DNA from: Isurus oxyrinchus
Taxonomy: Eukaryota
Length of the DNA: 64,000 bases
Direction of reading: 5' to 3'
NCBI GenBank assembly: GCA_026770705.1
Contig: JANJGN010000035.1
Span: 6,448,001 to 6,512,000 of the forward strand
In this document: in pieces, positions 1-21,913 of the stretch
How positions within the stretch are numbered: the first letter of the stretch is position 1
Layout: every line of letters starts with the position of its first letter
The notes under the pieces: model-generated
Told to the model about the DNA's origin: nothing
The model's input: only the letters and a program-made list of their open reading frames with translations
Database searches by the model: none
Position numbers and translations under genes: made by a program

Positions 1-241
1 AGATTCTTCTTTGTCTTTATGATGGAGATTCGAGACAACTCTATGGGCACCGTTGTCTCTACTTTCACAAACTCGCTTATGAACGATCAGAGCAGCATTT
101 ATGAAAATGTTGAATAAAAGTGTTGATAGACGCCGACTGTTGCTCAATGATTGGTGTACGTGATAGCTTCACGGCTTCCTGCTGGTCTATCCTTGAGAAT
201 TGTAACTGATCATTTGGAGTGCAAATTGGGTAAATTTCCTT
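1..241 (-). pseudogene. Candidate decayed exon of the minus-strand gene (runs off the window)
   Basis: Acceptor-like gtttcag| followed by KEIYPICTPNDQLQFSRIDQQEAVKLSRTPIIEQQSASINTFIQHFHKCCSDRS*, then a shifted coding-like frame. Donor lies outside the window. Confidence 0.35.
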
Positions 242-685
242 CTGAAACTTCATGTGTATCAGTTTGGCTCAAGGAATATATCTAGACACATTTAAAGGGC
301 GTGATGATAGGCAAAATCAAAGGATATTTTTGTACATTTTGCATTGGTATATTGAATTCAGAGCCTAAAAACTGATGACTGATACGTTAACACCTATACA
401 AACACTGAAATGCACAATGTACACCCTTCACTACTCCCACTGTGCCTTTCTGGCAATTACATTGATGGCGGTTGAATGGAAGGAAAAGCAGAATCTCGAT
501 GTCTGCGGCGTACAATTTGCAATTATCTCTCAGCTGGAAAATGTGCTGCAGAAATGTAAAATACTCAGGTGATGACTGAAATAGTTAAACAGTATTATTA
601 GTAACTGTTTATTTAGTTGTGGAAAACAGATTATACATTCTCACACAAAAGAAGAAACAAAACACTGAAGAACTTCAAGCACTTC

Positions 686-860
686 CTTCCACGCTCCTCT
701 AAGTTCAGCAATTCATGCCCGGCAACTAATGGACTATTTTGGTTATTACTGAATGCGTGGTGATTCTCAGATTGGATACCTGATGACAGCATACTTTTTT
801 TGTAATACTCGGGTCTCCGAGTTAGTGCTCCCGTTGCCTCAATCACCAAGTATTGCATCA
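686..860 (-). pseudogene. Candidate exon, phase-1 start
   Basis: Acceptor attttcccaacag|TG. Open frame (V)MQYLVIEATGALTRRPEYYKKSMLSSG...LLNLEERG is in frame with the donor at 1091. The 3' boundary is uncertain (possible damaged donor AG|gaagtg). Confidence 0.45.
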
Positions 861-1090
861 CTGTTGGGAAAATCATTTCACAGAACTGTACAAGAGAAAA
901 GGCCATTCTGTCTATTATCCAACTGTCAAAACTTCTTGAAAGCTGAGAAAATATAAGCCTCCCTTGTCCTTTCCCCATACACCTGAAATTTCCCACGTTT
1001 ATGTGGTTATCCAATTTCCTTTTAACAATAAATAATGGACCATCGTCCCCACAGGACAAAATAAAAATGCGCAAAATAAATCCCACTCAC

Positions 1091-1524
1091 CTTGCTCATC
1101 ACCTGCTTTAAATCTATCGCCTTTATCTAGGTTTTTTAGAGATCCTGCTGCAATTGGCGAACTGTCATTTAAAAGCAGTGATTGAAAGCCGTTTCCAATT
1201 CAGGGATCAGAATACAATATCGGTAAATCTGATGCTGAGCTCGAAGGTGGTAAACAATCCAGTATGGGTTTAGTTTTTTGGTTCATCAAAACCTAGCACT
1301 TTTGCCAAGCTATCATCAGAGGTTACGGCTGGGGCTGGGCGGGGGAGGATCTGCTTGTGATTGGATGAAGGGGATGAAATAAGTTGGAAAGTCTCTCGAT
1401 ACATTCAGATGCAGATACAAATGATGAGTTAATATTCCCATCAGTGGATTCCGTAATACATGCCTTAAATATTTCTAAATGGTTCGCACTTTTGTAAATC
1501 TCAATGCAGAAAATACAATGTTAT
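1091..1524 (-). pseudogene. Decayed exon (434 nt, frameshifted)
   Basis: Acceptor aattttcag|AT and consensus donor CAAG|gtgagt. Ser/Pro-rich pieces (ISSPSSNHKQILPRPAPAVTSDD; LKNLDKGDRFKAGDEQ) are broken by stops and frameshifts. Ends in phase 1. Confidence 0.55.
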
Positions 1525-2234
1525 CTGAAAATTGAGGCATGTCACGGCTATGATCGCGAATTCAAAGCTGATTTCATCCTTTCGGTAAAAGAAAACTTTG
1601 TGTGAGAGACGTTTGTAATAGCTCACTCTTTGTTATGGACACGGTGTTTATATCAGTAAGTCCCAAAACAACTCAACGCCCTCAATGACATCTTGCATTG
1701 CCCACTTAGTTACGTTAGTTAATCAGGTGTGGTGTCATCCGTATGACTATCGTTCCCTTTTCCAGCTCCATCAGGAGACATTCAAACTAAGGGTATAGAG
1801 ATGACTTTCCATAGCTTTTCAGTCAGGCTCTCACATTTAATCATCCTTTCTGGGATTATAAACGGAGATTATATACAGTGGACACAACTTTAATCGTTTA
1901 AAATATTGACTTCAGGACTTCTCAAACATGCTGTCAAGCGACAGTGCATTGTTGAGCCAAAGGAAAAGAACGGGAAAGAAGGGAAATAAGAATTAAATTA
2001 TTGCCATCTGCTCTCCTGCACATTATATGCAATTCGTTAAAAAATTATGCTAAGTATTTACTTCGGGCATTGTAGAGTTTAAGTTTTGAACAAGTTTCCA
2101 TTACAATGATCACAGATTTTGACGCACCTAAACAGTTTAATGCGAATAACTGAACTGAACGTCAATTACTGGCCTTATAATCATGTTTTGGATGCCCAAC
2201 TTGACTAATTTAAATATAAGACGCAATCGCAAAG

Positions 2235-2358
2235 ACTCCCTCACTGATACATGACTGTCTATTACTGATTGATTGTGTGTACTTAAGTCTACGCTCATTG
2301 TAAAGAAACTGGTAGTTTCTGGAATGAAACGGCTCATTAAAGTTCTGAAGAAATCTCA
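2235..2358 (-). pseudogene. Candidate exon, phase-1 start
   Basis: Strong acceptor (pyrimidine tract ending ttattttacag|TG). Open frame (V)RFLQNFNEPFHSRNYQFLYNERRLKYTQSISNRQSCISE. No clear donor, so the end is approximate. Confidence 0.35.
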
Positions 2359-3095
2359 CTGTAAAATAAAAAGATAGGAGTGTGCAATGTCGTTCAAATA
2401 TCAAAGAATATAAAGGTAGATTTTTTTACCATAAGATATTTAGTTCATCTTAAAGTTATTAATGATCAGGCATGATCACTTTCAAACTACTTTAAGGGAA
2501 TAGTGCCCGAAGAGGCATTATATAATGAATAGAATCATATTTCATGTTTAGATTTTGCTCCAAATGTTGGAAGTTCTAGTGTAGATATTTCCACGTTGTA
2601 TGAAGCATATTGCGTGCTTGTGTGGGCGTGGGCTTCTGTATATGCTTTGGTAATCTATGTGAATGTTTCCATCATTGCAGGTTGAAATCTAACCATCTCA
2701 CAGATGAGTGTTCGGGAATTCTGGTCTGCGCCGTCAGTGAAAAGAGTTCACTAACGGAGCTGAACCAGAGTAACGATGATCAGATTAGCGGAAAGCCAAT
2801 AAGCGGACTGTTCCATCTGTTCGTGCATTGCTGCGTTGTATAAAGACCAACGCGAATCTAAAGAAAAACAGGTCTGTTCCTTTGTTACTTAATTATATAT
2901 TATATTATCTTTCAAGAAATCATAGACTATAAGTATATCCGTTATTATGGATCTGTTGTGGAAAACAATGCATTATTAGAGCAGAATTGTTCTACTTCAC
3001 AAGGGTAAACGCATTTGTTGTGAATCAATTAGATTTTACGGCCTCCACACAGAACAGAGAATTTTTTAAAGAAAAACGTGTTGCGTGTTCCCCAC

Positions 3096-3374
3096 CTTAT
3101 TCTTCGGTTGTTGCAAAATCAGCTCTGTGCAGAAGGGCAAAAAAATCTGATGTCGACCCAGCTTGATTGTAGTTAAATAATGAAGGATTGTTTGGGGTGT
3201 TTCATATAATTTTGGTGCATATTGACGTCCTATAATCAGCGAAAGCAGACACGTTCGCTGATATTGACAGTCGAAAAGGCACTTGCTGTGATCACAGATT
3301 CGCTGCAAACCGGAAACTGTGGTTTTCTTCATAAGACTGCAGAGCCGCGCTTTAAAGGAATATGAATCATTTCT
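3096..3374 (-). pseudogene. Candidate open exon (279 nt, phase 0-0)
   Basis: Acceptor ttttcccaaattcacag|AGA and weak donor AAG|gtgggg. 93 codons without a stop (inside ORF 3066..3398). Confidence 0.4.
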
Positions 3375-3719
3375 CTGTGAATTTGGGAAAATTGACAAAA
3401 ACTGGCATAGACATTTACGTGTTTTGTCTTGCTGCTTATATAAACAGGTTTAAAACAGACGGGGAACTGATCGGCTAATTAAATTTATAATGCAGCTCCA
3501 AATTTTGCAACAGAGTGAGTGGTTTGATCTTTCAGACTGTATCACATTTTTTTTGAATCAAATGATTGGAGATATTGATTGCATGCCCTCATTAAACGGT
3601 GTATGTTTGTTGCACGGTGCATTGAATTTTGCAGTTTCTCCCAATTTAATAAATCAGTAGTACCGAATAATTTAACAAAAAGGACGAAGAGTAACATGGT
3701 TACCTGAAATGAACAAATT

Positions 3720-4340
3720 AGAGCAAAAATGAGCCATGTGCCCCCCGGAACCCATTGTGCCATGCAATAAGATCTTGGTTGATATGTTTATGGTTTGTGT
3801 CCACATTCGCATCTGCTACGCGCCAACCACCAGCACCCCCCATCCCGCCACCACCACCACCCACCACGCAACACTCCAGATTATCTGTAATTACTTGCCT
3901 ACCAAGAATCTATCTATCTGTGCCTTAAAAATATTTAATGACTTCGCTTCTACCGTCTCCTGAGGCACAGAGTGCAAAAACAAACCTTCCTCAATTCTAT
4001 CCAAAAGAGCGCCCCCTACCTTTAAAGCAGTATTCCTAGTTCTGGATTGCCCCACAAGATGAAAGATTTTTCACATCCACCTTGGCAAAACAATTCAGAA
4101 TATTATATTGTGCACTCATGTCACCACTCACTCTGCAAAACTCCAGTGGAAAAAAGCACAACATGTCGAACCGTTCTGCATAAGATAACCCAAACATTCC
4201 AGTTATCAATCTGATAAAACTCCACTGAACTGCCTTCAACTCATTCACATCCTTCCTTGAAGAAGGAAACCAAAAATTGCACATTTCATTCGAGATGCCA
4301 TCTCAATAAATCCCTGCATAAGTGAAGCATTAATATTTCT
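3720..4340 (-). mobile_element. CR1 LINE 3' portion (ORF2 C-terminus and 3' UTR), degraded
   Basis: ORF 4036..4284 (FWFPSSRKDVNELKAVQWSFIRLITGMFGLSYAERF) resembles the CR1 ORF2 C-terminal motif FWSP..RKD...LE.VQRRFTR.IPG..GLSYEERL. Confidence 0.85.
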
Positions 4341-4344
4341 CTCT

Positions 4345-5790
4345 ATTCATTCACAGGATGTGCCTTAGTAATTTTGGCCACCATTTATTTCCCATTCTTG
4401 TTGCTTTTGAGAAGGTATTGGTGAGAAGCCATTTTGAACCGCTGCCTTTCCTGTGGTGTAGATGCACCCACATTGCTGTCAGGAAGTGAGTTACTGCATT
4501 TTGATCCAACAACAGTGAATGAGCGGTGATATATTTTCAAGTCAGGATGTTAAGTGACTTGAAGTGGAACTTCCAAGTGATGGTGTTCACATATATCTGC
4601 TGCTCATGTCCTTCTAAATGATAGTTGTTGTGGGGTTCGAAGTTGTTGTCCAAGGAGCCTTTGTCAAATTCTGCAGTGCATCTTATAGATTATGTCCACT
4701 GCTGCTACTGACAATCGGTGGTGGAGGGAGTGAATATTTGTGGATGTTGTGCCAGTCAAGCGAGCTGCTTTGTCCTGGACGTTGTCAAGCGGGCTGTTTT
4801 GTCCTGGACGTTGTCAAGCTCCTTGATTGTTGTGGTAGCTGCACTCATCCAGGCAAATGGGTAGTATTTCAGCACACTCCATATTTGTTAGTTGTAGACG
4901 CTGGACAGGGTTTGGGGAGCCAGCAGGTGAGTGACTCACGCAGGAATCTTAACCTGCTTTTTACCTTTGAAGCTGCCATATTTATAGGGCTAGTCTAGCT
5001 CGGCTTCTGTTCAATTATAAATTCCAGGATGTTTATAGTCGGGGCTACAGCGATGATAAAGGCATTGAACGTCAAGGCACTGGTAAGAGTCTGTCTTGTT
5101 GAAGATTTTCATTGCCTCGCAATTATGTTGCTCCAATGTTACTTGCCACGTTTCATCCTAAGACAGGATGTTCTGCAGGACATGCTGTATTTGGATATCA
5201 ACTGCTTCAGCATCTCAGGAGTCTCGAATACTTCTGACAAATGTGCAATCATCAGTGAACATCCCCACTTCAGACCTTATGACAGAAGAAAGGCCATTGA
5301 TGAAAGAGCTGAAGATGTTTGTGCTGAGGAAACGACCCTGAGGAACTCCTGCAGTGATGTCCTGGAGCTCAGAATAGTGACCTGCAGCAGCCACAATAAT
5401 CTTCCTTTGTGCTAGGTATGACTCCAACCAATGGATATTTTTCTCTCTGATTCTCCTTGCCTCTAGTGTTTTTAGATTCCGTGATGCCACATTCGGTCAA
5501 ATGCAACCTGGATGTCAAGGCCATTCACTCTGACCTAACCTCTGGAATTCAGCTCTTTTGTTTATGTTTGGGCCAAGGCTGTAATGAGGTCAGGGACTGA
5601 ATGGCTCTGCTGGAACACAATTTAGGCGTCAGTGAGTAGATTATTGATAAGGATGTGCCGTTTGATCGCACCATTGATGACACCTTCTCTGATGATCGAG
5701 AGTACACTGATGGGGACTTGTTGGATTTGTCCTGCTTTTCCGTGGACAGGGCATGCCTCGGAAATGTTCCACATTGTCACGTGGGTGCCG
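4345..5790 (-). mobile_element. CR1/L2-clade LINE fragment nested in the CR1
   Basis: RT motifs WLESYLAQRK, ITAGVPQG and EVGMFTDDCT in ORF 5215..5490. Same family as 8700-10207. Confidence 0.85.
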
Positions 5791-5794
5791 ATAA

Positions 5795-6590
5795 AAGTTA
5801 TACTTTTATATTCAATTGCTCTTGCAATGAAGAACAGCATTCCGTTAGACTTTTTGATTACATGGCCGATCTGCAAACAAATTGTTTATGACTCGTGCAC
5901 CAGAATATTTCAATTGCGCTGTACGTCGGAATTCTGCAGTCATTCCTCTTTTAAGTAATGCACTTTTTTTTGTTCTTCTTTCCAAAGTGAACAGCTCCAC
6001 ATTTCCCTGCACGTCACGCCATCTGTTTGATTTTTGCCCAATCATGCAACTTATCCATAGTCATTTGCAAAGTACTTGTGTCTTCTTCAAAACACGCTTT
6101 CCTACATATATTTGTGTCGTCTGCAAATTTTGCGATCATTCCTTCGCTACCCTCATCTAAGTCATCGATATAAATTGCAAAAAGTTTAGCCCCCAGCACT
6201 GACACTTACGGAACACCACTCGTCATATACTGGCAATCAGTATACTCTTTGTTTTCTGGCAACCAGCAAGTCTTCTAACTAGGCTAATACTTGAACTAGT
6301 AGAGCATGATCTTTTATTTTCTGCACTAACGTTTGATGTGGAAAATGATCAAATGCCATCTTGAAATGCAAGTACAGTATACCTGCAGGCTCCCTTCTAC
6401 CTACCGCATGTTCTACTTCTACAATTAAATCTAATAAATTGTTTTAACCTTTATTTCCCTTGCTTAAAAGCATGCGGTATCTTCCTTAATACTTTGATTT
6501 TTTGTAAGTGCCCAGCTATAACCTCTTTAATGATTGACTCTCACACCTTTCTTATGACATAGCTTAAGTTAACTGGTCTATTGTTTCCTG
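5795..6590 (-). mobile_element. CR1 LINE RT region (upstream part of the 3720-4340 element)
   Basis: SVLGAKLFAIYIDDLDEGSEGMIAKFADDT (6014..6205) and IKKSNGMLFFIARAIEYKS (5622..5876). Confidence 0.85.
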
Positions 6591-7369
6591 AAATGAAAGC
6601 GCAGAGGAAAAAATGCATTGAAGTCAGCATCCAAAAAGACAAAAGGCACATTAACAGGCCTGCCTCTCTCCGAATCTTTTCACTTCCTGCAAGTTCGAAC
6701 AAAAATTACATGATACGGATTTTTTGTGATTAAGGAAAGTAATTGCATATTTCATAAGGCATATTAACAACTTACGTGCAGAGGTCAAAGTGGCTGAGGG
6801 GGTGGGGGCCAGCGGAAAGTCCTGAATATTGGCTGAAAGCTCAATTTTTTGAAGAAGAGTTTAAGCAAAAGAAATGATCAATGGACGGAATGTGAGAGAA
6901 TGCGCATATAAACCGACGGCATATCCCCCTTTTATTGGGCCAAGAATGCAGAGCGCAAAATTCTGGAGCCAGATGAATTAAGGCACGGTTTATGGCCGTG
7001 TTATGGGCCAGAAGGTAACGAAATAAATTGGGGAGAGTTTATTCAGGGTTTTATAAGTTATCATGAGAATGTGAATTCAAATTGAATACATGAAGAAGCA
7101 ATGTACTTCGGAAAAGACATGGATGATGGTCAATCAGTGATGAGTGAATGCATTTAACACAGAACAGTGTGCGGAAACAAAAGGTTTGACTTGGAAACCC
7201 CGGGCCTTTTTTGGTACTCTGTACACATTCCTTTCTTTTTCTCCTAAGATTTGAAAATGAAAACAATTGAATACAGAGTGTCATGCGACACAGTTAGATT
7301 TTATTTTAACGAGGTATCTCATGTTCCAAAAACGTCAGAGGCATGGACAGTCTATAGCATAATGCCTCA

Positions 7370-7620
7370 AATGTAACCTGGAGTACTGTGAACAGTTCGG
7401 AAGGACACGTTGGTTTGGAGGGGAAGCAACACTTTAAGAATTAAAAATCGAAAACATGTCTTGAACACACGCATAGTTCTGTTACTTCATCCCTTTATAA
7501 TAAATAAAAATTGAGTTTGACAGTGATATAGAGATAGTTTGCACATCAACCAAGAGCTCATTGAATGGGGGAACAGGATCGAAGGACTTAATGACCTTTT
7601 CCTGCTCTTCTGTTCTTAGA
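7370..7620 (+). mobile_element. Old CR1 3' end remnant
   Basis: ctggagtactgtgaacagtt and tail attgaatgggggaacaggatcgaaggacttaatgaccttttcctgctc resemble CR1 3' ends as I recall them. Confidence 0.5.
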
Positions 7621-7799
7621 ATTATTTCAGATCTAGCATATATCACATTTATTTGCCTAATAAGTTACATGATATATGCACCCGACACAAAAAATCATTC
7701 ACTGGTTACATGCCACAACGACAATAAGTTGACCAGCTGATGTATTTTATTTTGGCTTGTATTTGACGAACTCAAATGTGCCAATGGCTGAGACTTTAA

Positions 7800-8073
7800 T
7801 CACCATTTAGCGTAGGATGGAAACCGCAACTCTTTGTTAGGACGACGCTAGATCCAGGCACTGAAGGCCTGTCCTTCCCCATGTTTCTCGGGTATTCTCG
7901 GCTTCTGAACAAAAAGCCACAAAGGCTCGCGTCTGACGGGATTTCCCTGATTTTGTCAGCTGAATGTCATGATCTTGAGCTGATCCCAATGGCGGTATTC
8001 TTCTTCAAGCCAGGGGACCACTGTATTGACTAGCAGCTACACGTTTTCAGAGCCGTCTTCGGTCACTTATTCC
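7800..8073 (-). pseudogene. Candidate decayed exon
   Basis: Very strong acceptor tttttcattctctccttctcccgccag|G followed by a GC-richer coding-like frame with two TGA stops. Donor not resolved. Confidence 0.35.
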
Positions 8074-8699
8074 CTGGCGGGAGAAGGAGAGAATGAAAAA
8101 AACTGGCCCTGGGAAACTGCAAAGGATTATCGAGATGATGTTCAGAAAATGGTTACGGGATGTAAGGGGTAAAATGCAATGTTACATGAAGCTCACTTAA
8201 TATACTATAATAGCATATAATAAATGTATATATAGCATCAGAAACAAAAAAATAAAGAAATGCAATAAAGCCAAGTTATTAAAACTGCAAATCGGCAGAA
8301 ACTAAAATATATTGAGTGTAGCTGAAAAGTCTGGACAAGAAAATAAATGTCAGTGGTTTGAAATAAAATGGAAGTGAAAAAAGTATCAAACTTCTGAAAA
8401 AATTATTATATATATACACATATATAATGATATATTGCGTCTTCAAGGGGCGTGCTCAATCTCCTAATGTCTTTGAGTGTTTCAAGGGGAATGAAACACT
8501 TTTGCCCGTCCGCCATGTTATGCAATGCCAAGTAGTGTAATTTATTTCCCCAAGAACTACCTCAAATGTAGAGGCACTTAACTCGCACAGCAGGCTTTAC
8601 AGTGCATCGCACTCCTTCAAACAGAACTAAATTGCCTCCTAATGACGTGATTGAGATTGTGAACTAACAATTTACGTTCGCAGAACTAGGTGTATATAA

Positions 8700-10207
8700 G
8701 ACAATATGCCACAGTACTCTGGATATCGACTTAGTAGGGGAATACTAACCTCCTGCAGTCACAGGCCTGTTCCAGCATAGCTACAACACTGACATCTACC
8801 CAGCAATGTGGAAACGTGCCCAGTATGTCCTGTACTCAAAAAAACAGGAGATATGCAACTCTGAAAATTACCATCCCATCAATGTAATGTTGGTCATCAA
8901 TAAATTATTGGAAAGGGTGTTCAACAGTGCTGTCAAGCAGCTCTTGTTTAGCAATAACCATCTCACTGATGCCCAGCTTGGTTTGCGTCAGTGTAACTCA
9001 GCTGCTGACCTCACTACAGACTTGACTGAAACATGGACAATCGAACTGAATGCCAGCAGTGAGGTGAGTCTTTCTGTTTGTTTCCATGGCCGCATTAGAA
9101 GCACCGTGATATCAAGGAGTCCCAGCAAAACTTGAGTCAATGGAAATCAGGGGAAAAATCTCCACTGGATGGGGTCATACTTAAAACAACGGAAGATGGC
9201 TATGATTGTGGGAGGTCAGTCATCTCAGTTCCAGGACATCACTGCAGGGCTTACTCAGGGTAATGGTCTCGGCACAACCATCTTCGGCTGCTTCAAGAAT
9301 GTCCTCCCTTGCATCTTAACGTCAGATGTTGGTATGTTTGTTGAAGATTGCAGAATGTTCAGCACCATTGGTCATGCTCACATACAGAAGCAGTCCATGT
9401 CCAAATGCAACAGGAACTGTACAATACCCAAGTTTGGGCTGACAAGTGGCAAGTAACATTTCCGCCAGGCAATGACCATCCAAAATAAGAGAGAAAATAA
9501 TCATGGCCCCTTGGCCATCTATGGTACTACCGTCACTGAAATTCCCACTGTTAACATCCTATGAAGTGTAACTTCAGATGGGCTCGCCATATAAATACTT
9601 TGGCTACAACATTAGGTATGATGCCAGGAATCCTGCGACGGGTAACTCACCTGATGGCACCCCGAATCATATCCATCATCTGCAAGGTACACATCAGCAG
9701 TGTTTTGGAATGCTCCCCGCTTGCCTGGATGAGTGCAGCTCCCAAACTACTCAAGAAGCTTGGCAACATCGAGGAAAAAGCCCCCCGCATTATTTGCACC
9801 ATATCCTCAAACGTTCACCCCCTCCACCACCAACGTACAGTCGCAACAGTGTGTAGCATCTAAAAATGCACTGCACACATTCAGCAAGGCACGTTAACCA
9901 AAGCTTGGAAACATATGATCACTACCATCTTGGAAGACATGGTATCAGATAGATGGCAACACCACATCAGTAAGTTCCCCCCCGAAGTCACGCACCATCA
10001 AGACTTGAAATATGTTTGCCATTCCTTCTCTGGATCAAAATGCTCGAACTCTCTTCTAAACAGCTCTTTGGGTGCACCTACACCACATAGGCTGCGGCAG
10101 CTCAGGAAGACAGCTCACTACCAACTCTTAAAGGGAAACTACGGATGGAAAATATATGTTGGCCCAGCCAGCGAAGCCCACATCACGTGAATGATTAAAA
10201 AAAAAAC
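8700..10207 (+). mobile_element. CR1/L2-clade LINE, 5'-truncated, with A-rich tail
   Basis: RT pieces NYHPINVM, AQLGLRQ, DITAGLTQG, VGMFVEDC and VLECSPLAWMSA in ORFs 8806-9863. Ends cacatcacgtgaatgatt plus an A run. Confidence 0.88.
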
Positions 10208-11609: not shown

Positions 11610-11645
11610 TTGTCAACATATATGTTGCTCATGGAGCTACATTAC

Positions 11646-11822
11646 CAAACAATCGATGCTTCCCGGGTAAAACTTGGTGTATTAACCATCGGCAAATCTA
11701 GAAGCAGATATTAGATACTTTTTCGTATACATGGTACGAATGCTAAGGTTGCATAGTTGACGCTGAATCGCATGTTGCCCAGAGCACGTTTTTGCCGCCG
11801 AAGGGGATGGAATCCATACAAA
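11646..11822 (-). pseudogene. Symmetric phase 1-1 exon (177 nt) with two TAG stops
   Basis: attatag|TT...TTTG|gtaatg. Translation CMDSIPFGGKNVLWATCDSASTMQP*HSYHVYEKVSNICF*ICRWLIHQVLPGKHRLF. Confidence 0.55.
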
Positions 11823-12567
11823 CTATAATATATATATATACCAAAAAGCGCGACCAAGAGAAATACAAGTATCAGAGTTATCTGGGAAAATTCCAGCAAA
11901 TCATTTATTGCACCGCTGAAAGGAAATCTGATGACCTGTTCACCCACAGTTCAATGTTGCCTACGTTTGCTGATGGATATTAGCTGCCTGCTAACAGCGT
12001 TCAAATTTTAATATTTGTTTTCTTTTCAGAGGCTTTGAAACGTATATCATTGTATCATCCTACAACGCGACAACCCTCCAAGGACACCACTTTCTCAAAT
12101 CTTCGACCTCCTGTCCATTACAGGTACCTTCGATCTATCGGTAGGAGGCGCACTTTCAGCGACTAATCCTTAAAATCTGGCAGTACGATCGAAGCCTTTT
12201 CACTTCCCCTCACAACTATTTACCCGTCTTAGTTCACTGCTTGAAACATACCAGTTTGAGCAAACAATTTGCCACTTGTTGCATTTCTAAATGTTATTTG
12301 GCCCACTGCCAAATTATTTATCTATCATTCTACTGTGTAGCTGTTTGGCACGTTAATGACTATAGAAACGCGAACTGATCGATAAAATAAACAATTTCAG
12401 CGGATCCCAACATTTCGGAAATAAATTGCATTGGCGTTATGAATTTGAAAATATTTCTCGCTTCAGTTTGAATTACTTAAATTAATGGATTCGTTGGAGC
12501 GCAAGTACCTTAGTTTGCCTTCAAGCAATTAAGCGTTTAATAAGGAACACCAGATGAAGACGCTCAC

Positions 12568-12675
12568 CAAATTCTTTGATTGCGTATTCCAATCTCTTCT
12601 GGTAGTTTTTTATGATATTATTGAGTTCATTGTCTCTGATAACTGACAAACCATATTTCATGTTTGCCTCCGCCT
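12568..12675 (-). pseudogene. Intact symmetric phase 1-1 exon (108 nt)
   Basis: ctcatttttag|AG...GAATTTG|gtgagc. Translation (E)AEANMKYGLSVIRDNELNNIIKNYQKRLEYAIKEF, no stop. Confidence 0.65.
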
Positions 12676-13147: not shown

Positions 13148-14080
13148 CTCAGGAATCTTTTGAAAGCCATCACTGAACTAAGATGAAGTGCAAGATCTTT
13201 ATTCAATTTCAGAAGTGCAGCCTGAAGATTTTTGTTTTGCAATGTTGCGTAACACTTTCCATTTTGATGCTTACGAATTTGACGTCATTAGATCACCAGG
13301 TATCCGCAGCAGAACTAGAATAATTGCTTGAAGGTTGAGGTTACTTGATTCAACTTATGTGCTGCTGGGTATCCCACTTCAAGACAAGGAACTATCTCGC
13401 CAGTTCTGTGTACCTTCTCCCATCTGCGCCAGGACCATTGGTTTTGATTGTTAGATATTAAGGCGCTTTCGCTCTGCGGGTGGATTTCTTGCCACTGTGA
13501 GCACTGTTGCTTAGAAAAGCGTCTGCAAAGGACTTTTCTTTTTCCACAATTTCTGTTCTCCCAAGCTTCATATTGGCAGTACTGGTCTTTGTAACTATAT
13601 TGAAGGGAGCATCGGTCGCAGTGAAAACTTCTTGCCCAAATTCTGAGATGACACTTTTAACCATCCCACCAGGCCCTGCGATGCCGCTTTACGTTCGTGT
13701 TGGATATGATGCAAGTATATATTTGTGAACTCAAATTTTATAAGTTAAAATTTCCCGCTTCATTATACCACATTCTCTGCTCTGAGGTTTTGTTAGGATA
13801 TTCAATTTTATCATCGAGTACTTTGCTTTCATCGTCCAATACCGCCGACTGCAAACGTGCCTTAACTTTCTGTTCCGAGATTCAGTTTTCCAGTTCCGGC
13901 CATGGTGTCTCCAAACAGAACAGCTTGTTGGTCTAAAATGTTTCAAATACTCAACACTAAATGCAGCTGATTCGCCCTCATGCTACTTGGTGTTATCGGG
14001 CTAAGCACATTCAAATACATATCAATAACTTCGCACATGGCTATTTGGAATTTCTGCCATTATTCACTGTCTCCATCACT
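13148..14080 (-). pseudogene. Large decayed exon (~930 nt)
   Basis: Acceptor ccttttgccttgcctttag| and donor GAG|gtaaat. Coding-like pieces (ISEQKVKARLQSAVLDDESKVLDDKIEY; GPGGMVKSVISEFGQEVF...EIVEKEKSFADAF) lie in shifting frames with stops. Confidence 0.55.
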
Positions 14081-15060
14081 CTAAAGGCAAGGCAAAAGGT
14101 GTGATAAAATCGCGAATTTTACGCTTGTACCTGAGCTCTTAAAATAATTGAAAAAAATCGGTCAAGAACGAGGCTCCAATAACGAAGTAGAGAGCCCAAC
14201 CTATGCAAAAGCAGTTATTGACGTGTGGACAGGCAGGGTAGAGAGAGGTGAGGAGGGGCGTTTCAAATGGATGTTAGCTTCCATGCGGCTGTTTTTCGAG
14301 AAAACCCTGTCAATTGGGAGAACATTCAGGCGTGTCAGCGAGAAAATACATAAACGTTTAATTAATCTAACATAACACAAAATCTCTTACTACTTAATTA
14401 TAGTTCACTTCAATATTATGCACAAATTCATTTTTTTTTATTTTGTTGCCATCTCACAAAGCATGGATACGATTAAATTGGAATTTGAATCGTTATTTTA
14501 CGGATATTCATTCTTATGGCAAACGTTTAAGAGAATATCAAAGGAGTGTGTTTCGTTTAAGCGATAAACCGATTTGCAACAGTAATCCTTCTAACGCTCA
14601 GCCTTCACTCATAGAACAAATACTCATCTCTATTGGCATAGGATTTGCTTTTTCAAAAAGTTTGTTTAAATACTTTATTTGCAATATCTTTCAGAACGTA
14701 ATATATTGCAAGTTATCATATCGTTACAATGATCCCATCGAAAATGTGGTAGAATGATTTAAATTAATCAGAAACATAACTCAATCCATATCAGAATTTT
14801 ATAGGACAAGATATTATGTAAATAGATGGTGTAATTTTAGTATTCAAGGTTAATAGGAACGTATAGAACAATAAATAGGGGATGGAAATTTACCTTTATG
14901 TACATTTAATACATTTTTAGAAAGGGGAGAAATATGTATAGGCTTTATTAATAGACTTCAGGGAGTTTCAAATTGCTGACATGATACTTTGAGTGAAATG
15001 AGAAAGAAGACTAGTTAGATAATAACTTGATAGCTTGGCTTTAACATACCAGAAACTTAC

Positions 15061-15204
15061 TGCACCATTATTCGGACTACACCCATGGCCAGATTTGCTT
15101 TGATTGTAGGCTTAATGGAGGATGTTCTTTTGATGCGGTTTGTGCAAGAACTAGCATAGTCGAGGAAAAATATTGTTTTTCAACAAAGGCTGCGTTTAAA
15201 TCTG
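15061..15204 (-). pseudogene. Symmetric phase 1-1 exon (144 nt), two stops near the 3' end
   Basis: cacttttttacag|CA...TGCA|gtaagt. Translation DLNAAFVEKQYFSSTMLVLAQTASKEHPPLSLQSKQIWPWV*SE*WC. Confidence 0.6.
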
Positions 15205-15688
15205 CTGTAAAAAAGTGGTCGTCATAATGAATACCCTTGATTATAATGTGATTATCTATAACCTAACATGATATAGAATGTTTTTTAAATCGTATGACAT
15301 ATATGAATTCGTATTCTACAAGTGAAGAATAACGGCTAGTGAATTATTCTTGCAAATATAAGTATTTCTAAAGCGAAACACATTCATTTGAGATTGTTTT
15401 ATACTTGCACTGAATGTCATAAGAATGAATGTCCGTAAAAAGATGGAATTAAATTCTAATTTAAACGTGTACATAGAGTTTGAGATGACAGCAGACTAAA
15501 ATAATTGAATTTGGGTACAATTTCGATGTGAACTATAACTAAATATGCGGATAAATTTTGAATTCCAAGTTGAGTTTCCGATTATAGATTTGTCCTAATG
15601 CTGTGTGCTGGCAGTCAGCAATGAGGTGCACTCTGTGAAATAGAAATACTGCTGAATGCATCAGAACAAGATCAATGGTAACCAACAC

Positions 15689-15810
15689 CTGATGTGCGTT
15701 CCTTTCTGTCAACTTTGCCAGTCTCGCTTTTTTCAATGTCAGCTGTAAACCTTTATTCACTCTGTGTGTACCTTTATGGCCACTTTGAGCAATATTGCTT
15801 AGCAGAGTAT
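15689..15810 (-). pseudogene. Candidate open exon, phase-1 start
   Basis: ttattcttttcaacag|AT. Translation (D)TLLSNIAQSGHKGTHRVNKGLQLTLKKARLAKLTERNAHQ. Weak donor CAG|gtgttg. Confidence 0.45.
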
Positions 15811-16189
15811 CTGTTGAAAAGAATAACTTTCTTACTCAACATCAGTGCTTCCAGGTGTCATGTATATTTTTGGCAGTGTTTGTTAAGAAATAGAAAGTGA
15901 TACTTAACAAAGATAGGCAGCGACTGCACTGGCTAAACACCGTTCTTGCTCCCCGATTCAGACAAGGGAACAATGTTTCTCACAGTCATCTCTTCTTATC
16001 TCCCTTTCCGTTAGTTCTGTAGTCTTCTGCTCCTAGCTGGGAGGTTGCCTATTGCCTCCCGTTTCACATGCAGGGTGCCTGACTGCTGAAACGCTAATGC
16101 TTTTGAACTCCTTCTTGGATACAGCTCGTTCATGGTCAGTGGTGTGCCTGAACTCTGTTCAGTCACTAAGTGGTTTAGATGTTACACAG

Positions 16190-16272
16190 CCAGTTTCTGA
16201 TTGGTTTCTTAAGCATGACCGGCGCAAACTCGATGGGCCGAGGGTCATTTTCTGTGCCGTAGACCTCTATGA
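16190..16272 (+). mobile_element. CR1 3' tail fragment
   Basis: ggcgcaaactcgatgggccgagggtcattttctgtgccgtagacctctatga matches the recalled CR1 terminal pattern also seen at 23760-23800. Confidence 0.65.
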
Positions 16273-17274
16273 TGATGGTCATATACTGATATTATTTCCT
16301 GCTGCCCTCTGTTTGGCCCTAGAATAATTCAGTTGGATTGTCCACTTCACTAAACTTTTTTTTATCCCCTTGTTATTTAATTGAGTATTATAGTTTTCTA
16401 TTGTTATACTGTGGTAGTGTAAGACGTTTTCTTTGTCCCACTTATAAGTGAGTTTCTGATGTCAAATTGTAATGATTTACATTTGAGCGTTTGTCCCAAA
16501 TTTTAATATGCTGTACAGATTTCCTGTACAACTCTCATTCGGGAAGAATCCTATCATTACGTTTTGGTTAAGGGGATCATTTTTCTAGTGAATGTTTTTA
16601 CTGTGTCCGGCCGTGTTGGTCGCCAGTTAGCTAAGAGTACGAAATGGCACATAACATTGTGCTAATACAGAAATAACAAATTTATTACATACATAGGCTA
16701 TACAACTTCCTAAAAAAAAATGGTGCATGAAGATGATTGTTGTCTTAAAATTGACGTAGCAAGATATACCTTTAAAATCCAGCAATTTGTATTCAATTGA
16801 AATAAGTTCCTAATTATCAAAATCAATGAACAACATTGTTACAAAAGCTGATTACAGAAATTGATTCTTCTCAAAAATTATTAAGTTCAAGATGCTAAGC
16901 ATATTATCAGGGCATGGAAATGATAGCTTTAAAACACTACAACATAGCTATATTTTTCAGCCTGTAGGCTTTTCAAATAAAGAGGTACGCAAACTGAGGT
17001 GTTAATTGTCTTTGGGAATACAGGTTCCCATCTTCGGAAACATTCAGTCTGGAGAGACTTCGCAGCAACTGCTCTGTCAGAAAACCATAAAATGAAGCAA
17101 AGTCTTCCGCAGCTTTTTTTTACCTAACCCATGGTTTGGGTCCAAGTGGTGTTTCTTAATTTTCAAGACAATGACGTGATCCTAGTGCCCTACACTGATT
17201 ATAATTAAGCGGACTGTTCATTGATTAATACACAAATAAACAAACTACAAACACAATGTGATGAACTATTAAAC

Positions 17275-17490
17275 CTAAGCTACTCTGCATCATACTGAAA
17301 GGAAGGGTGTTTGTGATTTTGTTGCTTGGATCATTTTTTCCCCTGGGACCATTATTGTAACCAGAGCCTATTGCGAAATACTGGTCGGAGCCTCTGCAAT
17401 TTCCTTCTATTATAGCTGTTTCGAAGTGGTCCAGTTTCTTAATATTTCTTCTCTCACTACGTTTATTACATTAAGAATTGCAGACACTTC
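17275..17490 (-). pseudogene. Symmetric phase 1-1 exon (216 nt), one stop
   Basis: taattag|GA...TTAG|gtttaa (both sites weak). Translation SVCNS*CNKRSERRNIKKLDHFETAIIEGNCRGSDQYFAIGSGYNNGPRGKNDPSNKITNTLPFSMMQSSL. Confidence 0.45.
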
Positions 17491-18270
17491 CTAATTAACT
17501 ACAGTTTCTCATTCGCTACTCTGATAGCAGACACAATACATTGAATAGAATCTACGTACATGCCTCTCGCCTCAAAATTGGGCTAGCTGCTTCATTTCTA
17601 ATTGGACACACTACTCATTTATTTTCAAATAATGATTGTGGCCATGGATGCGGTCAACATATTCCAGCCATGATTCGTGATGAAGATATAAATCACGTGA
17701 AGATTATTGATTCCTGTTAGGAAGGAAAGCAAACTAAGTGTTGGGGTTGGTTGGAAGAGACATGGCAAAGGGTTAACTTAAATACACGAGAAACAATATT
17801 TCCTAATTAGGGAAAAATAAGTGATAGACCTACTTTGGCATTTTGCAGAGAAAATTAAAGTGAAGGTGAATGCACTCCCCATGTAATATTGATTCCCATT
17901 AATATTTCAATTAGATTCCAAATTTCATGTAAAACATGTATTCGTGTTTATCAAACTGGAGTAGGATAATGCGATGATAATTTGAGTGGATCAAACCAGT
18001 GTCAGAGAAGTTCTAATTTCGTTTCCAATTAATTTCAGACGCCCCAGTGCAAATAGAGAAGTAAGTTATACCATCAGTGTCCATTATTTTCCATCACCTA
18101 AAACATTCAGAGAACGGAGTGGGCATTGTAACCATTGCACAGTTAAATTCAATTTTGCAGAGAAGAAAGTATAGGACACAAGAATCACTCTATTTACAAT
18201 TAATCAACAGGCGGTTTGTCAGTTACACCGTAAGTTAAATTTGTTCCCATTCGACTCTTGTCAAACTTAT

Positions 18271-18414
18271 CTCAGATTCTTTGCTGTGAAGCATGTTCAT
18301 GAAACAGAATTTCACTGATGCCGCTCACAGATTCTCCAATAATTGCAAGTATTTGGACTTGATGTAATACCCACTCATTGCATTGATGAGTATCGTCATC
18401 CCGGCGCAGAATTC
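18271..18414 (-). pseudogene. Symmetric phase 1-1 exon (144 nt), terminal TGA and GT>AT donor
   Basis: gaatttcag|GA...TGAG|ataagt (one change from gtaagt). Translation ILRRDDDTHQCNEWVLHQVQILAIIGESVSGISEILFHEHASQQRI*. Confidence 0.55.
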
Positions 18415-19419
18415 CTGAAATTCCAGCGTTATAACAGGACAGAAAATACAATTGGACTTAAAATAAATGACTGAACGATTACAGAAATGACAAAACGGGT
18501 GGGTGACTTACGGTGCAATTCCTTCACCACATCATTAAAAAAAAACTATTTATAGAGGTTTGGCCGTACAGAACTTGAGCATTGCCGAGGAAATGGGCAT
18601 GCGATCGAACGTTTTTCTTTTCTTTCATGATAGGAGCATGAATGAAGAAATGCGAATGGAAACAACAATTTATCCTTCATTACAAAACGTCTGCTCTCTG
18701 ATTGGTTGAGCCTTTGCCATTGAGAATAAAGCCGGTAGCAGTTGCCTCTCAAAATTTTTTTTCTTAATTGGTAAAGACGCATCTCCTGCATATTTTCCTT
18801 TCCTGCTTCCGGAGGACAGCACCCTGCATATGAATACATGTAGCTACTAGCAAGCGTACGTGAGCCGAATTGCGATGCATAAGACCTCCAAATTCCGCAA
18901 TCAAAGGTGTCAAATCTACCTCAAGCTTCCCCTGAAAATTCTTGCATTCTCAAAAAAAATAAAAACAATTGAGAAGCTGGTGAAGCTCAACGTTTCAAGC
19001 TGATGCTCGACAGGAACAAGAGTGTCATTATTCACGTATAGGATGCTGCCTTCAAAAGAGAGTTCTGCCTTCCACAAAATGTGTAATGTGGCATATAAAT
19101 GGCAGTACTAGGTATGCAGCCACTGCGTCTTATTGACTGCCGGATAGTATCAAACTGAATAGCCTCCTGCTCTTCCCAACAGGCACTCAACAAGCAGGCA
19201 CTTGCAATTCTCAGAGGATAGGGTGCCACATTCGATATCATTCCATCATTTGGATATCATTTCACGAACAATACTAGCTGTGCTAAGAATTCCAGCAACA
19301 ATGAATTTAACATTATTATTCGGGCTCATAATTTGTCGAACAGACCATTCCTGGATTTTTTTTTCATAATCAGTGGCCTCGTCTCTGTTGGTAAACAGAA
19401 GTGTAGAGAGATTGTGAAA

Positions 19420-19520
19420 CGAAAACAGAAAATGCTGGAAAAAATCAGCAGGCCTCACAGCATCATTGGAGAGACAAAAACAAATCTAATATGTCGAGCC
19501 CTGAAGACCTTTCTTCGGAT
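19420..19520 (-). mobile_element. Older Penelope-like terminal fragment
   Basis: aaaacagaaaatgctggaaaaaatcagcagg...cagcatc is similar to 23933-24030. Confidence 0.6.
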
Positions 19521-19878
19521 GGGTTGTGCCGTTTTCCATCAAGGAAAAGTTTGCGGGACAACACTTTTTCCGTGCATTCCCAAAGGCAATGACTCAACTC
19601 CTAAGTTTGTTCCCGTTTTCTTTAAAAAGGAAAAGCTGGAAGATAACTGCTACATTTTGCATTCTCCATGGCAATGCCTCCATTAACCAGAGTCTGCTTG
19701 TCAAACCATTAGAACAGTTTCATTCGCGTGCAGTCTAAGTTTTTGCTTTCTCTATGTCTTTTATAATATTTTTTGCTCTGAGGAGGGCAGCTCGAAAAGC
19801 TTCGATACCATGTCTCAATGTAACGAAAAAATAAATTAGTTCAAACGCAGTAATGAAAAATATCTAAAGCTCATTTGT

Positions 19879-19990
19879 TATGTGTGTGTGCATGTCTGTA
19901 TAAATATATCTATCTAACTGTCTATCTGCCGAACATTCTATGCATGTATGTATGTATGCATGTATGTTTGTATGTATGTATCTATCTATC
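19879..19990. repeat. Compound microsatellite (TG/TATC/TATG)
   Basis: tgtgtgtgtg...tatctatcta...tgtatgtatgtatg seen directly. Confidence 0.85.
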
Positions 19991-20130
19991 TTCATGATCA
20001 TTCTGAAAAGTTTCACCACAGCGAATCAAGCTATCAGGCTAGAACACCTCTTCTGTCAAATTGTCATCTCTTGTGGAAACAAGCATTAATCCTGTCATGG
20101 CTAAATATTCCTTGCACACATCACAATTAC

Positions 20131-20471
20131 CTTATGAACTGCCAAAGTTTCTATTGCATGTCGGCCTTTTGGCGAGATTATCCATAGGCAGACGTCAGCT
20201 TCCAAATATACAGTGTCGAAAATCTTTCACACCTCCCTTCCTCCTTCAGATGTCATGACCTAAGAGGGCGTCTGTGTACCTCAACTTCTTTTGTATTGGT
20301 TCCTCTTTAAAATTGGAAACGTTTTGCAGAGGTTTGCCATTGCCTTCTTCAAAATGGCTGACCAGACATCACACTCTTTCAAAATTCCATCAGGCGTATT
20401 GGACGGATTTGCATATTGTTTATCAACCTGCTTGGCCACCTTATGATCGCCCCTTCCATAGCTATCAAATC
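20131..20471 (-). pseudogene. Decayed exon (341 nt, one frameshift and stops)
   Basis: tttcaaattctacttcag|GA and CATAAG|gtaatt. Translation FDSYGRGDHKVAKQVDKQYANPSNTPDGILKE, then after a shift HFEEGNGKPLQNVSNFKEEPIQKKLRY. Confidence 0.55.
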
Positions 20472-21054
20472 CTGAAGTAGAATTTGAAAGCAGAACTTCC
20501 GCCCAAAATAGAAACGCCACCGAAACGCCATAAGTCCTCTGCAAGACATATTGCACTTCAATATTGGTCTATTTAGCCTTTGATTGGTGCTGTACTCTCA
20601 AACTTCTCTAACGTCAGATTACGTTTCGCCTTTAACCCGCTATCAACACGCCATTTACTGTCTAGCATTCTTCGTTTATTGAGGAATTATATACAACAAA
20701 CTCAAATATGCCTTTTTATTAACAAAGCTGCGTTCATTATTTCAGGCTGTCATAGGCAAGGTACACAAGGCAAATGCAATGTAATTTGTATGAACTAACT
20801 GTCGATAATACTTATGTAAGGTAAAACGTGGCGAATTCATAGAGAATAAAGTTGTGAATTTTGGAATGTATGCCAAACTCGTTTAGCAATTGGTCAAGGG
20901 CTACATTAAGTACAATTAATTGAATGTTTGCATATTGGTAGTGGCATGATCATGTTTTAGTCTGTGGGATTTTCCAATCTCCGACTATATGAAAGACCTG
21001 TATAAAGCCTATAGTCGCACTGCAATTTGAAAATCATGGGACGATACAAAATAC

Positions 21055-21288
21055 CTTTGCATATATGCATGGATGTTTCAAGTACGTTTGTTTGTGTGCA
21101 CTTCAAATAAGCATCACAACTGACAATTTGCTGTGCGTGCTTGTGCAGGTGTTTCTTTCTTGACTGGGGTTTACATTGCGCATTTAATTTCGAATGATTT
21201 TCTAAATTTAATCTCTGCGCTTTGAGCCTCCTTGAAATTTTGGAATTTCCTTTGAATGCGATGTGTGTGCTTTAATTTCTCCGTCTTC
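21055..21288 (-). pseudogene. Symmetric phase 1-1 exon (234 nt), one stop
   Basis: cttcctctctcccccatag|GA...AAAG|gtattt. Translation RRRN*STHIAFKGNSKISRRLKAQRLNLENHSKLNAQCKPQSRKKHLHKHAQQIVSCDAYLKCTQTNVLETSMHICK. Confidence 0.65.
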
Positions 21289-21722
21289 CTATGGGGGAGA
21301 GAGGAAGTCAATACAAGATGTTGTTACTGTGGGAAACGTGCCTCAAACTAAATAAAAACTGATGTGCTAAGGAACATCTGAGCTGAAATAGAGGGTGATG
21401 TCAGTAAAGTGTTTAGTCCCAATGATCTGAAAGAGAACAGGTTACAAATACCATGCTGATGCACGAAATGGAATGTGAATATGCATAATCTTCGCCAACC
21501 AACATAAGGTTGGAGCATAACACACAAAGGGGTTAGTTTTGCTGATAACATGGTGCGCTTTATTTGCAATCAGACAGTGTGTTAGAAGAAATTTTAAGCA
21601 TAAATTTACGCATACAAGAAATTGACTGCCGTTTCAATGAAGCAGAGTCGGATACATAGGTAGAATTATTTGAATTTCATTTCAGGAGCTGCTGACTCTG
21701 AATGTAACGTTAGTGAACTTAC

Positions 21723-21913
21723 CCGCCCTGATGAGCAGAAAGCTGGCTCCTCCACCGCTCACTTCATGCCTCAATCATGCTCAATTACATTCACACACAA
21801 ATCGGCCATTCACAAACGACAATTCCGTCTTTTGTCTATTCTTAGCTTTTGGGTAGCCTGGCACAGGCATCGCGGATGGAGAATTCAGAGGTATTGCTTT
21901 CCATAATGCTCCT
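21723..21913 (-). pseudogene. Decayed exon (191 nt)
   Basis: tttcccctttgcctaaaatag| and consensus donor GCGG|gtaagt. One base short of a multiple of 3; stops in all frames. Confidence 0.45.

Follow-up and report, generated by a model that had tools for sequence, protein, structure and literature searches.

Pieces of three broken NLR genes very probably make up a region of shark DNA once proposed to hold one long gene

Introduction

NLRs signal through their N-terminal domain. An NLRP-related NLR family has expanded in the whale shark (PMC8455134), and the portions of that account drawn on here describe cartilaginous-fish NLRs as many divergent NACHT-LRR copies with rapid turnover, and contain no description of N-terminal exon structure. 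Zebrafish NLR-B30.2 genes, according to the portions of a preprint used here (bioRxiv 10.1101/022061), are clustered and carry a death-fold domain together with duplicated N-terminal peptide repeats that are shuffled among family members.

We analysed a 64,000-nt stretch of DNA from Isurus oxyrinchus (the window), within which an earlier note had proposed a single long, disordered-protein gene on the minus strand, now pseudogenised and made mostly of phase 1-1 exons, six of which were placed between positions 1 and 21913. Our results indicate that this region very probably consists of pieces of three broken NLR genes, likely joined by duplication, deletion and rearrangement in a tandem cluster, and that it likely produces no protein. 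The locus resembles the cartilaginous-fish NLRs above in its many divergent copies and rapid turnover, but the copies in the window are broken. To the zebrafish genes it bears an outward likeness in its clustering and its duplicated N-terminal units, although the zebrafish repeat is about 30 residues long compared to an exon of 114 codons here. Among the papers listed by literature searches, none dealt with this locus or with how the N-terminal exons of shark NLRs are arranged.

Results

All six proposed segments occur on the minus strand where they had been placed, and computation confirmed that each follows an AG and is a multiple of three in length (Table 1). Without a splice filter, positions 1-21913 contain 1676 AG..GT segments of this type (90-250 nt) on the minus strand and 1568 on the plus strand, with 1668 and 1610 in the other two minus-strand phases; because some 1,600 such segments exist on either strand, the symmetric pattern alone is weak evidence. 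When splice sites were scored with approximate frequency matrices rather than with MaxEnt, 9 minus-strand segments, grouping into 8 clusters, reached at least 2 bits on both sides, versus 1 on the plus strand and 1.9 ± 1.5 in 30 shuffles. Among flanking tile, strand and phase controls, 0 of 96 reached 8 clusters and 3 of 96 reached 9 segments. Only one of the six proposed segments (12568) is among these 9, half of the clusters (4/8) coincide with repeats or lie antisense to a plus-strand NLR exon, and at a threshold of at least 0 bits the minus-strand excess vanishes, the observed 17 clusters being equalled in 16 of 96 controls. The comparison with the plus strand and with shuffled sequence, suggested in the earlier note as a check, gave a divided answer, with the strands alike when unfiltered but an excess on the minus strand at the 2-bit threshold.

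Codon usage, scored against 16,160 control segments, placed segment 12568 at the 99.6th percentile and 18271 at the 95th, and the remaining four between the 18th and 77th; the two that score high are the same two for which exon homologues were found. The density of windows with a high codon score at 3-20 kb was not above that of the flanks, in a scan whose mask also hid true relic exons. The top ranks of a pairwise codon scan, a test of weak power whose NACHT control gave a dN/dS of about 0.8, held only retroelement frames and plus-strand NLR exons of two duplicate loci (copies B and C, described below), and no proposed segment or exon A frame was among the rows listed.

Table 1. Positions and character of the features discussed.
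Feature	Position	Strand	Description
Decayed NACHT exon, 3' end	1..568	plus	Donor at 569; exon start lies beyond the window's left edge
Near-misses at 1091 and 860	860..1234	minus	Within intron 1 of the plus-strand pseudogene
LRR exon 1	2288..2380	plus	In-frame stop; 3' end approximate; tblastn
LRR exon 2	2681..2871	plus	54%, E 7e-7; AG and GT present
LINE-like relics	4336..10205		Include an opposite-orientation pair, 4336-5776 / 8792-10205, ~65% alike
Proposed segment without homologue	11646..11822	minus	177 nt, phase 1, 2 stops, GT follows; weak splice sites; coding score 24th percentile
Relic pre-NACHT exon	12509..12675	minus	167 nt, phase 1 to 0, one TGA
Proposed segment	12568..12675	minus	108 nt, phase 1, 0 stops, GT follows
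Old paralogue of array exon A	13622..13932	minus	Phase 1-1 type; frameshifted; CT at donor position
Inverted repeat pair	14391-14646 / 15287-15545		~70% alike; encloses 15061-15204
Proposed segment	15061..15204	minus	144 nt, phase 1, 2 stops, GT follows
Proposed segment in dispersed repeats	17275..17490	minus	216 nt, phase 1, 2 stops, GT follows; both ends repeat; splice scores -9.8/-5.7
Proposed segment; likely second pre-NACHT first-half exon	18271..18414	minus	144 nt, phase 1, 1 stop; AT in place of GT (donor GT>AT)
Rearrangement junction	20158..20159		Right side a segmental duplicate, left side not
Proposed segment	21055..21288	minus	234 nt, phase 1, 1 stop, GT follows
Near-miss at 21723	21723..21857	minus	Donor not kept in paralogue; stops in all frames
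Deletion junction	27986..27991		NACHT and two LRR exons lost from the array gene
Array exon A	28360..28701	minus	342 nt, phase 1-1; the window has 7 copies, of which this is the first

The segment at 12675 begins at an authentic exon start, but its proposed donor at 12568 is internal, and the segment covers the first two-thirds of a 167-nt exon (12675-12509). This exon matches G000:C35:9718144-9718311, the pre-NACHT exon of an NLR whose NACHT frame is open (571 codons without a stop), with 66% DNA identity over 235 nt (E 5e-19). The two exons are homologous: they align with no indel, share their AG and GT and are 42% identical in protein. A profile of 23 paralogous pre-NACHT exons, 22 of them on the window's contig, finds the exon with an E of 3e-5, while the reversed control found nothing, and 18 of the 23 have a GT at the homologous phase-0 position. 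A protein search with 12554-12676 returned no match (0/5). The exon corresponds to the first half of a two-exon helical pre-NACHT domain; models of the half-domains are helical, with a best fold match of Z 5.5 and no clear match, and single exons of this domain gave no CARD in Pfam or PDB sequences. Among the loci compared, the NLR at G000:C35:9.707-9.718 Mb is the best match both for this exon, which it resembles in length, splice sites and DNA, and for the NACHT exons of copies B and C, but, unlike in the window, no exon A or 18414-type exon was found within 30 kb upstream of it.

The segment 18414-18271 shares 60% DNA identity with a pair of open frames in the right flank (E 6e-23 and 2e-20), which end in GAG|GT in phase 0 and score 14-15 bits on the pre-NACHT family profile up to its donor end, whereas the window's own peptide scores 0.2 bits. 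It looks symmetric because of a 2-nt gap near its 3' end, and the paralogues bear out the earlier reading of its final AT as a mutated donor GT. Assigned through these paralogues, the segment is likely a second pre-NACHT first-half exon. Between the two lies an exon absent from the earlier list of six: 13749-14078 is 61-68% identical to copies of exon A, the repeated exon of the array further right (best E 3e-15), and 59% identical to an old exon A copy in copy C (E 2e-17), the acceptor aligns with that of exon A, and identity across the entire exon, 13932-13622, is 51-54%. A protein search with one frame of 13148-13929 gave 0 of 397. The window from 12.4 to 14.8 kb is collinear, at 57-68% identity, with exon A and the pre-NACHT exon of copy B.

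On this homology, the minus strand from 12.5 to 18.4 kb is the 5' half of a dead second NLR. Rather than continuing the array gene, 11.6-18.5 kb is paralogous to the 5' half of that gene, and the relationship is an old one. A pseudogenised minus-strand gene related to the gene of array exon A is therefore present, as had been proposed. It is a truncated pseudogene and not a whole NLR: no NACHT was hit by protein or DNA searches in 3000-12400, and a second-half exon following either first-half exon was not found within the window.

At the window start, the translation of 1-568, interrupted by stops and frameshifts, is 38-46% identical to open NACHT exons in this cluster, and the profile places two pre-NACHT exons of the same pseudogene about 4.4 and 2.9 kb before the window begins. 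LRR exons, recognised by similarity to cluster exons, follow at 2288 and 2681 on the plus strand, and copies B and C likewise have LRR exons, on their minus strand; the first in the window is 48% identical to the LRR exon of a paralogue (E 7e-4; DNA 62-64%), and one short LRR piece of the window matched no Pfam family. Positions 1-2871 thus hold the NACHT-LRR end of a third NLR pseudogene, this one on the plus strand. One of its introns contains the near-misses at 1091 and 860, which had been offered as further exons and gained no support as such; 600-2250 has no paralogue beyond a short repeat, and no match in four other NLR loci.

Since their orientation and order are compatible, and the minus-strand fragment is without exactly NACHT and LRR, the minus-strand 5' exons at 12.5-18.4 kb and this plus-strand NACHT-LRR tail might be viewed as one multi-module NLR split by an inversion. 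We consider this improbable, given that the plus-strand gene has two pre-NACHT exons of its own, and that its NACHT finds its best matches in other cluster members, with no DNA hit to the NACHT of copy B or C.

The DNA right of 20158/20159 (copy A) is common to two loci 0.36 and 0.97 Mb away. Over 8123 columns, copy A has 579 private differences, C 645 and B 784, and because of this clock the left flank of copy A is taken as the derived one; neither copy B nor copy C showed a 3' continuation of the gene in its left flank. The deletion at ~27990 amounts to 7.8 kb relative to copy C and 13.4 kb relative to copy B, and the missing DNA, as present in these copies, holds minus-strand NACHT and LRR relics. 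Further on along the same strand, copy B has a weak second-half match (E 0.36) followed by NACHT and two LRR exons, and copy C has NACHT followed by LRRs, the downstream NACHT of both being found by tblastn. In copy C, Pfam scores for NACHT (E 0.0011) and NLRC4_HD2 (E 0.0012) fall below the curated cut-off, which a relic would be expected to do.

Segment 21288-21055 lies right of 20158/20159, in what is left of the 3' part of the younger NLR duplicate. Although it has a strong acceptor in the window copy, its counterparts are 236 and 246 nt long, AG and GT are lost in one paralogue and the AG is shifted in the other, its identity to them is 77-79% versus 78-85% in the flanks, and other NLR loci yielded no homologue of it. 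Of 6 equally simple indel histories, 2 would give it an open phase 0-to-1 frame. Phase 1-1 boundaries are thus kept in paralogues at none of 12675, 18414 and 21288. Two further near-misses of the earlier note fare no better, that at 20131 lying 28 nt left of the junction and that at 21723 decayed as listed in Table 1.

Exon A occurs here in 1, 2 and 7 copies, and what looked like an orphan array of exons is an NLR's N-terminal linker in amplified form. Its frames are open in 4 of 7 copies, its acceptor is lost in 2 of 6 copies checked, dN is 0.187 and dS 0.189 (6 of the 7 copies), and within the array unit of ~5.8 kb no other stretch free of frameshifting indels is as long as the 473 nt of the exon A region. 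An exon A profile matched none of 3455 protein candidates, and a search of 1.84 billion protein representatives gave nothing at E<=0.001. These open frames, the frameshift-free stretch and the two open frames upstream that are paralogous to the 18414 exon would suit an array copy still in use, with a NACHT-less transcript of a first-half exon and repeated exon A acting as an N-terminal signalling decoy. The dN/dS of about 1, the lost acceptors and the failure to find the phase 0-to-1 exon required between the two exon types make this reading improbable too, and the array is better read as part of a decaying NLR.

The remaining segments gave no support for exons. No homologue was found for 15061-15204 (coding score 18th percentile), and 11822-11646, considered as a second-half exon or NACHT stump, had no significant profile or DNA match. 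Both ends of 17275-17490 lie in dispersed repeats: a repeat present on another contig and recurrent in the DNA compared aligns with 17419-17630 (65%, E 4e-11), and a second repeat with 17190-17289 (73%). This segment is likely a LINE relic and not an exon. Judging by their motifs, the LINE-like relics of the window may be of CR1 type. Reverse-transcriptase similarity gave no direct tblastn hit for 17275-17490, and a related relic, itself without a Pfam family, adjoins DNA 75% alike to another LINE-like copy. Of the six segments proposed as exons, then, two trace to NLR exons, one derives from a repeat and three are unsupported.

One long disordered-protein gene of phase 1-1 exons running from the array down to base 860 is the least probable reading and already largely refuted: the six segments do exist, the minus strand has a nominal excess of well-flanked phase-1 segments and exon A is itself 342 nt and phase 1-1, but the exons that could be traced are NLR exons with a phase-0 end, the series is cut by the duplication junction at 20158/20159 and so is not a continuous locus, one segment is repeat DNA, and the lowest near-misses lie within an intron of an opposite-strand gene.

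Several searches were blank. Pfam assigned no family to 12 peptides, the ESM Atlas returned only weak or unnamed clusters, and the window segments, when searched genome-wide as protein and as DNA, failed to bring up the paralogues; these genome-wide blanks are insensitive, because it took short-word blastn to reveal the paralogues. No RNA data set was listed as containing 11620-21600. When contigs from five runs of the same species were aligned at 80%, they covered repeats and contained no joint between candidate exons, which has no bearing on expression. The ANKRD26/CCDC144 coiled-coil genes, considered because of a resemblance, were rejected: PF14915 (CCDC144C) matches on contig C20, and the exons there miss the window segments.

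Discussion

In the history that we favour, the ancestral gene would have comprised a first-half exon, linker exon A, a two-exon helical domain, NACHT and LRRs, in that order, and would have signalled via its N-terminal domain, as NLRs do. The second, minus-strand NLR would have lost its NACHT and LRR exons by deletion, none being found at 3-12.5 kb. The DNA right of 20158/20159 is a younger duplicate of the same NLR type, in which exon A was tandemly amplified and the NACHT and LRR exons were lost through the deletion at ~27990. All copies examined are now broken and presumably drifting neutrally.

The NLR family accounts for just two of the six proposed exons, and the region therefore reflects ordinary gene-family decay. 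As it stands, such birth-and-death debris in an NLR cluster has little significance, the process having already been described for sharks and zebrafish. It does provide a worked case in which symmetric exons picked by eye were partly real yet wrongly bounded.

Should a live orthologue with repeated exon A exist, a variable-length linker would be added to the known shark NLR architectures. An unlikely extension, though less so than the alternatives above, is a shark NLR subfamily in which a 114-codon low-complexity linker exon between two CARD-like modules is resized by whole-exon tandem duplication, setting the reach of the signalling domain in live orthologues, with the seven-copy locus lacking NACHT and LRR spliced into a decoy. 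The two open paralogues of the 18414 exon differ with a dN of 0.19 and a dS of 0.25, and their open frames, together with the frameshift-free exon A region, could reflect late or lingering selection.

Symmetric segments on the minus strand

The window (G000:C35:6448001-6512000, within a 4.98-Gb genome) was analysed with 100 kb of added DNA per flank and compared to two 100-kb paralogous regions, copy B (C35:7.39-7.49 Mb) and copy C (6.79-6.89 Mb), found with array exon A, a 342-nt minus-strand exon, as the query; copy A is the window's own copy, and bare positions are window-relative. An earlier note had read six minus-strand segments (21055-21288, 18271-18414, 17275-17490, 15061-15204, 12568-12675 and 11646-11822) as phase-1 symmetric exons of one long disordered-protein gene. 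All six are present in the sequence as described. The region holds a genuine but ordinary relic, further members of a known gene family that were misread as one symmetric-exon gene. Without a splice filter, 1,676 AG..GT phase-1 segments occur on the minus strand of 1-21913 versus 1,568 on the plus strand. When at least 2 bits were required at both ends, using approximate splice matrices, nine segments in eight clusters remained on the minus strand, compared to one on the plus strand and 1.9±1.5 in shuffles, and none of 96 real flanking controls reached eight clusters. Just one of the six segments is among these nine, and of the eight clusters four overlap either repeats or an exon on the other strand; once the threshold drops to 0 bits, no excess is left. 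Five open frames from the same genome served to train a codon-usage score, which placed 12568-12675 at the 99.6th percentile and 18271-18414 at the 95th, with the remaining four between the 18th and 77th.

A pre-NACHT exon of an NLR and a probable second

The 12675 peptide weakly matched DNA upstream of copy C's plus-strand NACHT, and from this match 23 paralogous pre-NACHT exons were identified. Run against all six frames of 1-28000, their profile matches 12673-12551 (E 3e-5; reversed control empty). At the DNA level 12440-12750 shares 66% identity over 235 nt with exon C35:9718144-9718311 (E 5e-19), with zero indels in the exon and AG and GT identical in position. The acceptor of the proposed 12675-12568 exon thus stands, but its donor does not: the true exon reaches 12509, and the homologous phase-0 position carries GT in 18 of the 23 paralogues. 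The NLR containing C35:9718144-9718311 has an open NACHT frame of 571 codons and, among five compared, matches the NACHT relics in B and C most closely. On the same strand below exon A, copy C carries a NACHT (Pfam E 0.0011) and two LRR exons; copy B, below exon A and its 12675-exon homologue, carries a weak second-half match (E 0.36), a NACHT relic and two LRR exons. By sequence homology the minus-strand gene is an NLR, and the reading as a long symmetric-exon gene for a disordered protein largely falls, since those of its exons that have homologues trace to NLRs and the 12675 exon runs from phase 1 to 0. Half-domain tests of the pre-NACHT exons did not confirm a CARD, and no NACHT or second-half exon was found below 12509 on the minus strand.

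Coordinates of exon relics and paralogues on the minus strand
Feature	Position (window-relative)	Strand	Details
Relic pre-NACHT exon	12675-12509	minus	167 nt, phase 1 to 0, one TGA
Exon A paralogue	13932-13622	minus	frameshifted; CT at donor position; absent from the earlier note's list
Open 18414-exon paralogues	75785-75958, 94951-95124	minus	within 4.4-kb local duplication

Both open paralogues of 18414-18271 (dN 0.19, dS 0.25) end in GAG/GT in phase 0, so the proposed GT>AT donor change at 18271 was correctly called. The symmetry of this segment is only apparent, due to a 2-nt gap in the window copy. Its proposed frame fits the paralogues better (5 and 6 of 500 shuffles versus 67-446 for the other two frames). 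With the pre-NACHT profile, the paralogues score 14-15 bits and end at the profile's donor, compared to 0.2 bits for the window copy.

An old paralogue at 11.6-20.1 kb

Standard searches detected nothing paralogous to 11.6-20.1 kb, but short-word blastn on the DNA of the flanks and paralogous regions recovered what they had missed: 12366-14800 is collinear with copy B over exon A and the DNA below (57-68% identity), array exon A copies match 13749-14078 (best E 3e-15), and two right-flank places match 18061-18491 (60%; E 6e-23 and 2e-20). The opposite-strand control gave repeats and short matches only. The middle region is therefore an old paralogue of the 5' part of the array gene. Its divergence from that gene is about that of the plus-strand NLR from its paralogues (59-64% identity), and 13932-13622 is no more similar to exon A than the adjoining intron is. 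Directly below the exon A paralogue, intron-side DNA contains an old direct duplication (13400-13571 / 15688-15861, 63%), possibly left over from a second unit. Duplicate C also holds an old diverged exon A copy (G000:C35:6857953-6858644), 59% identical to 13.5-14.0 kb of the window.

The other segments lack comparable exon homology. Segment 17490-17275, whose two ends lie in dispersed repeats, is probably a LINE relic rather than an exon; 15204-15061, between inverted repeats, and 11822-11646, with weak splice sites, have no homologue in the fetched NLR loci. The inverted repeat pair itself (14391-14646 / 15287-15545, ~260 nt) has no other copy by genome search. Segment 21288-21055, with counterparts of 236 nt in C and 246 nt in B, is a candidate exon only: a strong acceptor speaks for it, with an open phase 0-to-1 frame under two of six equally simple indel histories; against it, B lacks both splice sites and conservation is no higher than in its own flanks.

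Junctions and the exon A array

Rightward from 20159, copies A, B and C share a segmental duplicate (~79-83% identity), whereas to the left B and C stay alike for >30 kb and A diverges from both. This junction at 20158/20159 splits the series, and one continuous gene from the array to the segments is untenable; a further near-miss segment at 20131 lies 28 nt left of it. Private differences over 8,123 columns number 579 in A, 645 in C and 784 in B. With a clock assumed, A groups with C as its sister, and the left flank of A is therefore likely derived. A deletion at 27986-27991 in copy A has taken 7.8 kb relative to C and 13.4 kb relative to B, and the DNA with the NACHT and LRR exons of B and C is absent.

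The array spans 27987-64000 and continues in the right flank as far as 67291. It comprises seven tandem units of 5.2-6.3 kb with one exon A each, in which the N-terminal linker of an NLR copy that has lost NACHT is amplified. Across six copies (one with a 9-nt gap excluded), exon A has dN 0.187 and dS 0.189, a ratio near 1; the acceptor is lost in two of six, and no protein match was found among 1.84 billion representatives. When codons were compared pairwise among A, B and C, the top ranks went to retroelement frames and to plus-strand NLR exons in B and C, and to none of the candidate exons. Against a dead array, no other stretch of the unit runs as long as exon A without a frameshift, and four of seven copies are open. 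Each unit also has an open plus-strand frame, such as 30192-30476, which may resemble the start of a Gypsy-type gag; repeat cover is low at 29.3-31.9 kb.

The left end belongs to a plus-strand NLR pseudogene, with a NACHT exon bearing stops and frameshifts (-1084 to 568), LRR exons 3' of it (~2288 and 2681-2871) and two pre-NACHT exons of its own outside the window, ~4.4 and ~2.9 kb to the left. The near-miss minus-strand segments at 1091 and 860 lie in its first intron. Among five compared, its NACHT best matches cluster members other than the 9.71-Mb NLR. Upstream of its NACHT, copy C's plus-strand NLR carries two complete pre-NACHT modules of two exons each (G000:C35:6763215, 6795449).

Proposed history and neighbouring frames

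In NLRs, LRR and NACHT serve in sensing and the N-terminal domain in signalling; in their present state none of these pieces is capable of either. The sequence shows three broken NLR copies, two junctions and the exon homologies. An ancestral NLR ordered as first-half exon, linker exon A, two-exon helical domain, NACHT and LRRs would have undergone an old duplication and a later one (A, B, C). Copies would then have shed parts by deletion, exon A amplifying together with its intron, and rearrangement would have brought together the old 5' half, what remained of copy A and an unrelated plus-strand NLR's tail. PMC8455134 describes an expanded NLRP-related family with rapid birth-death turnover in whale shark, and 10.1101/022061 describes duplicated and shuffled N-terminal peptide repeats in zebrafish NLRs.

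An open 583-codon minus-strand NACHT with LRR exons below lies 45 kb right of the window (G000:C35:6557414-6559162); a search of the 53 kb above it gave no clear pre-NACHT exon. G000:C35:6545252-6548029 is an open 926-codon retroelement frame, probably of Penelope type, with many 85-97% copies nearby. An open single-exon frame of 311 codons at G000:C35:6368509-6369441 may encode a G-protein-coupled receptor.
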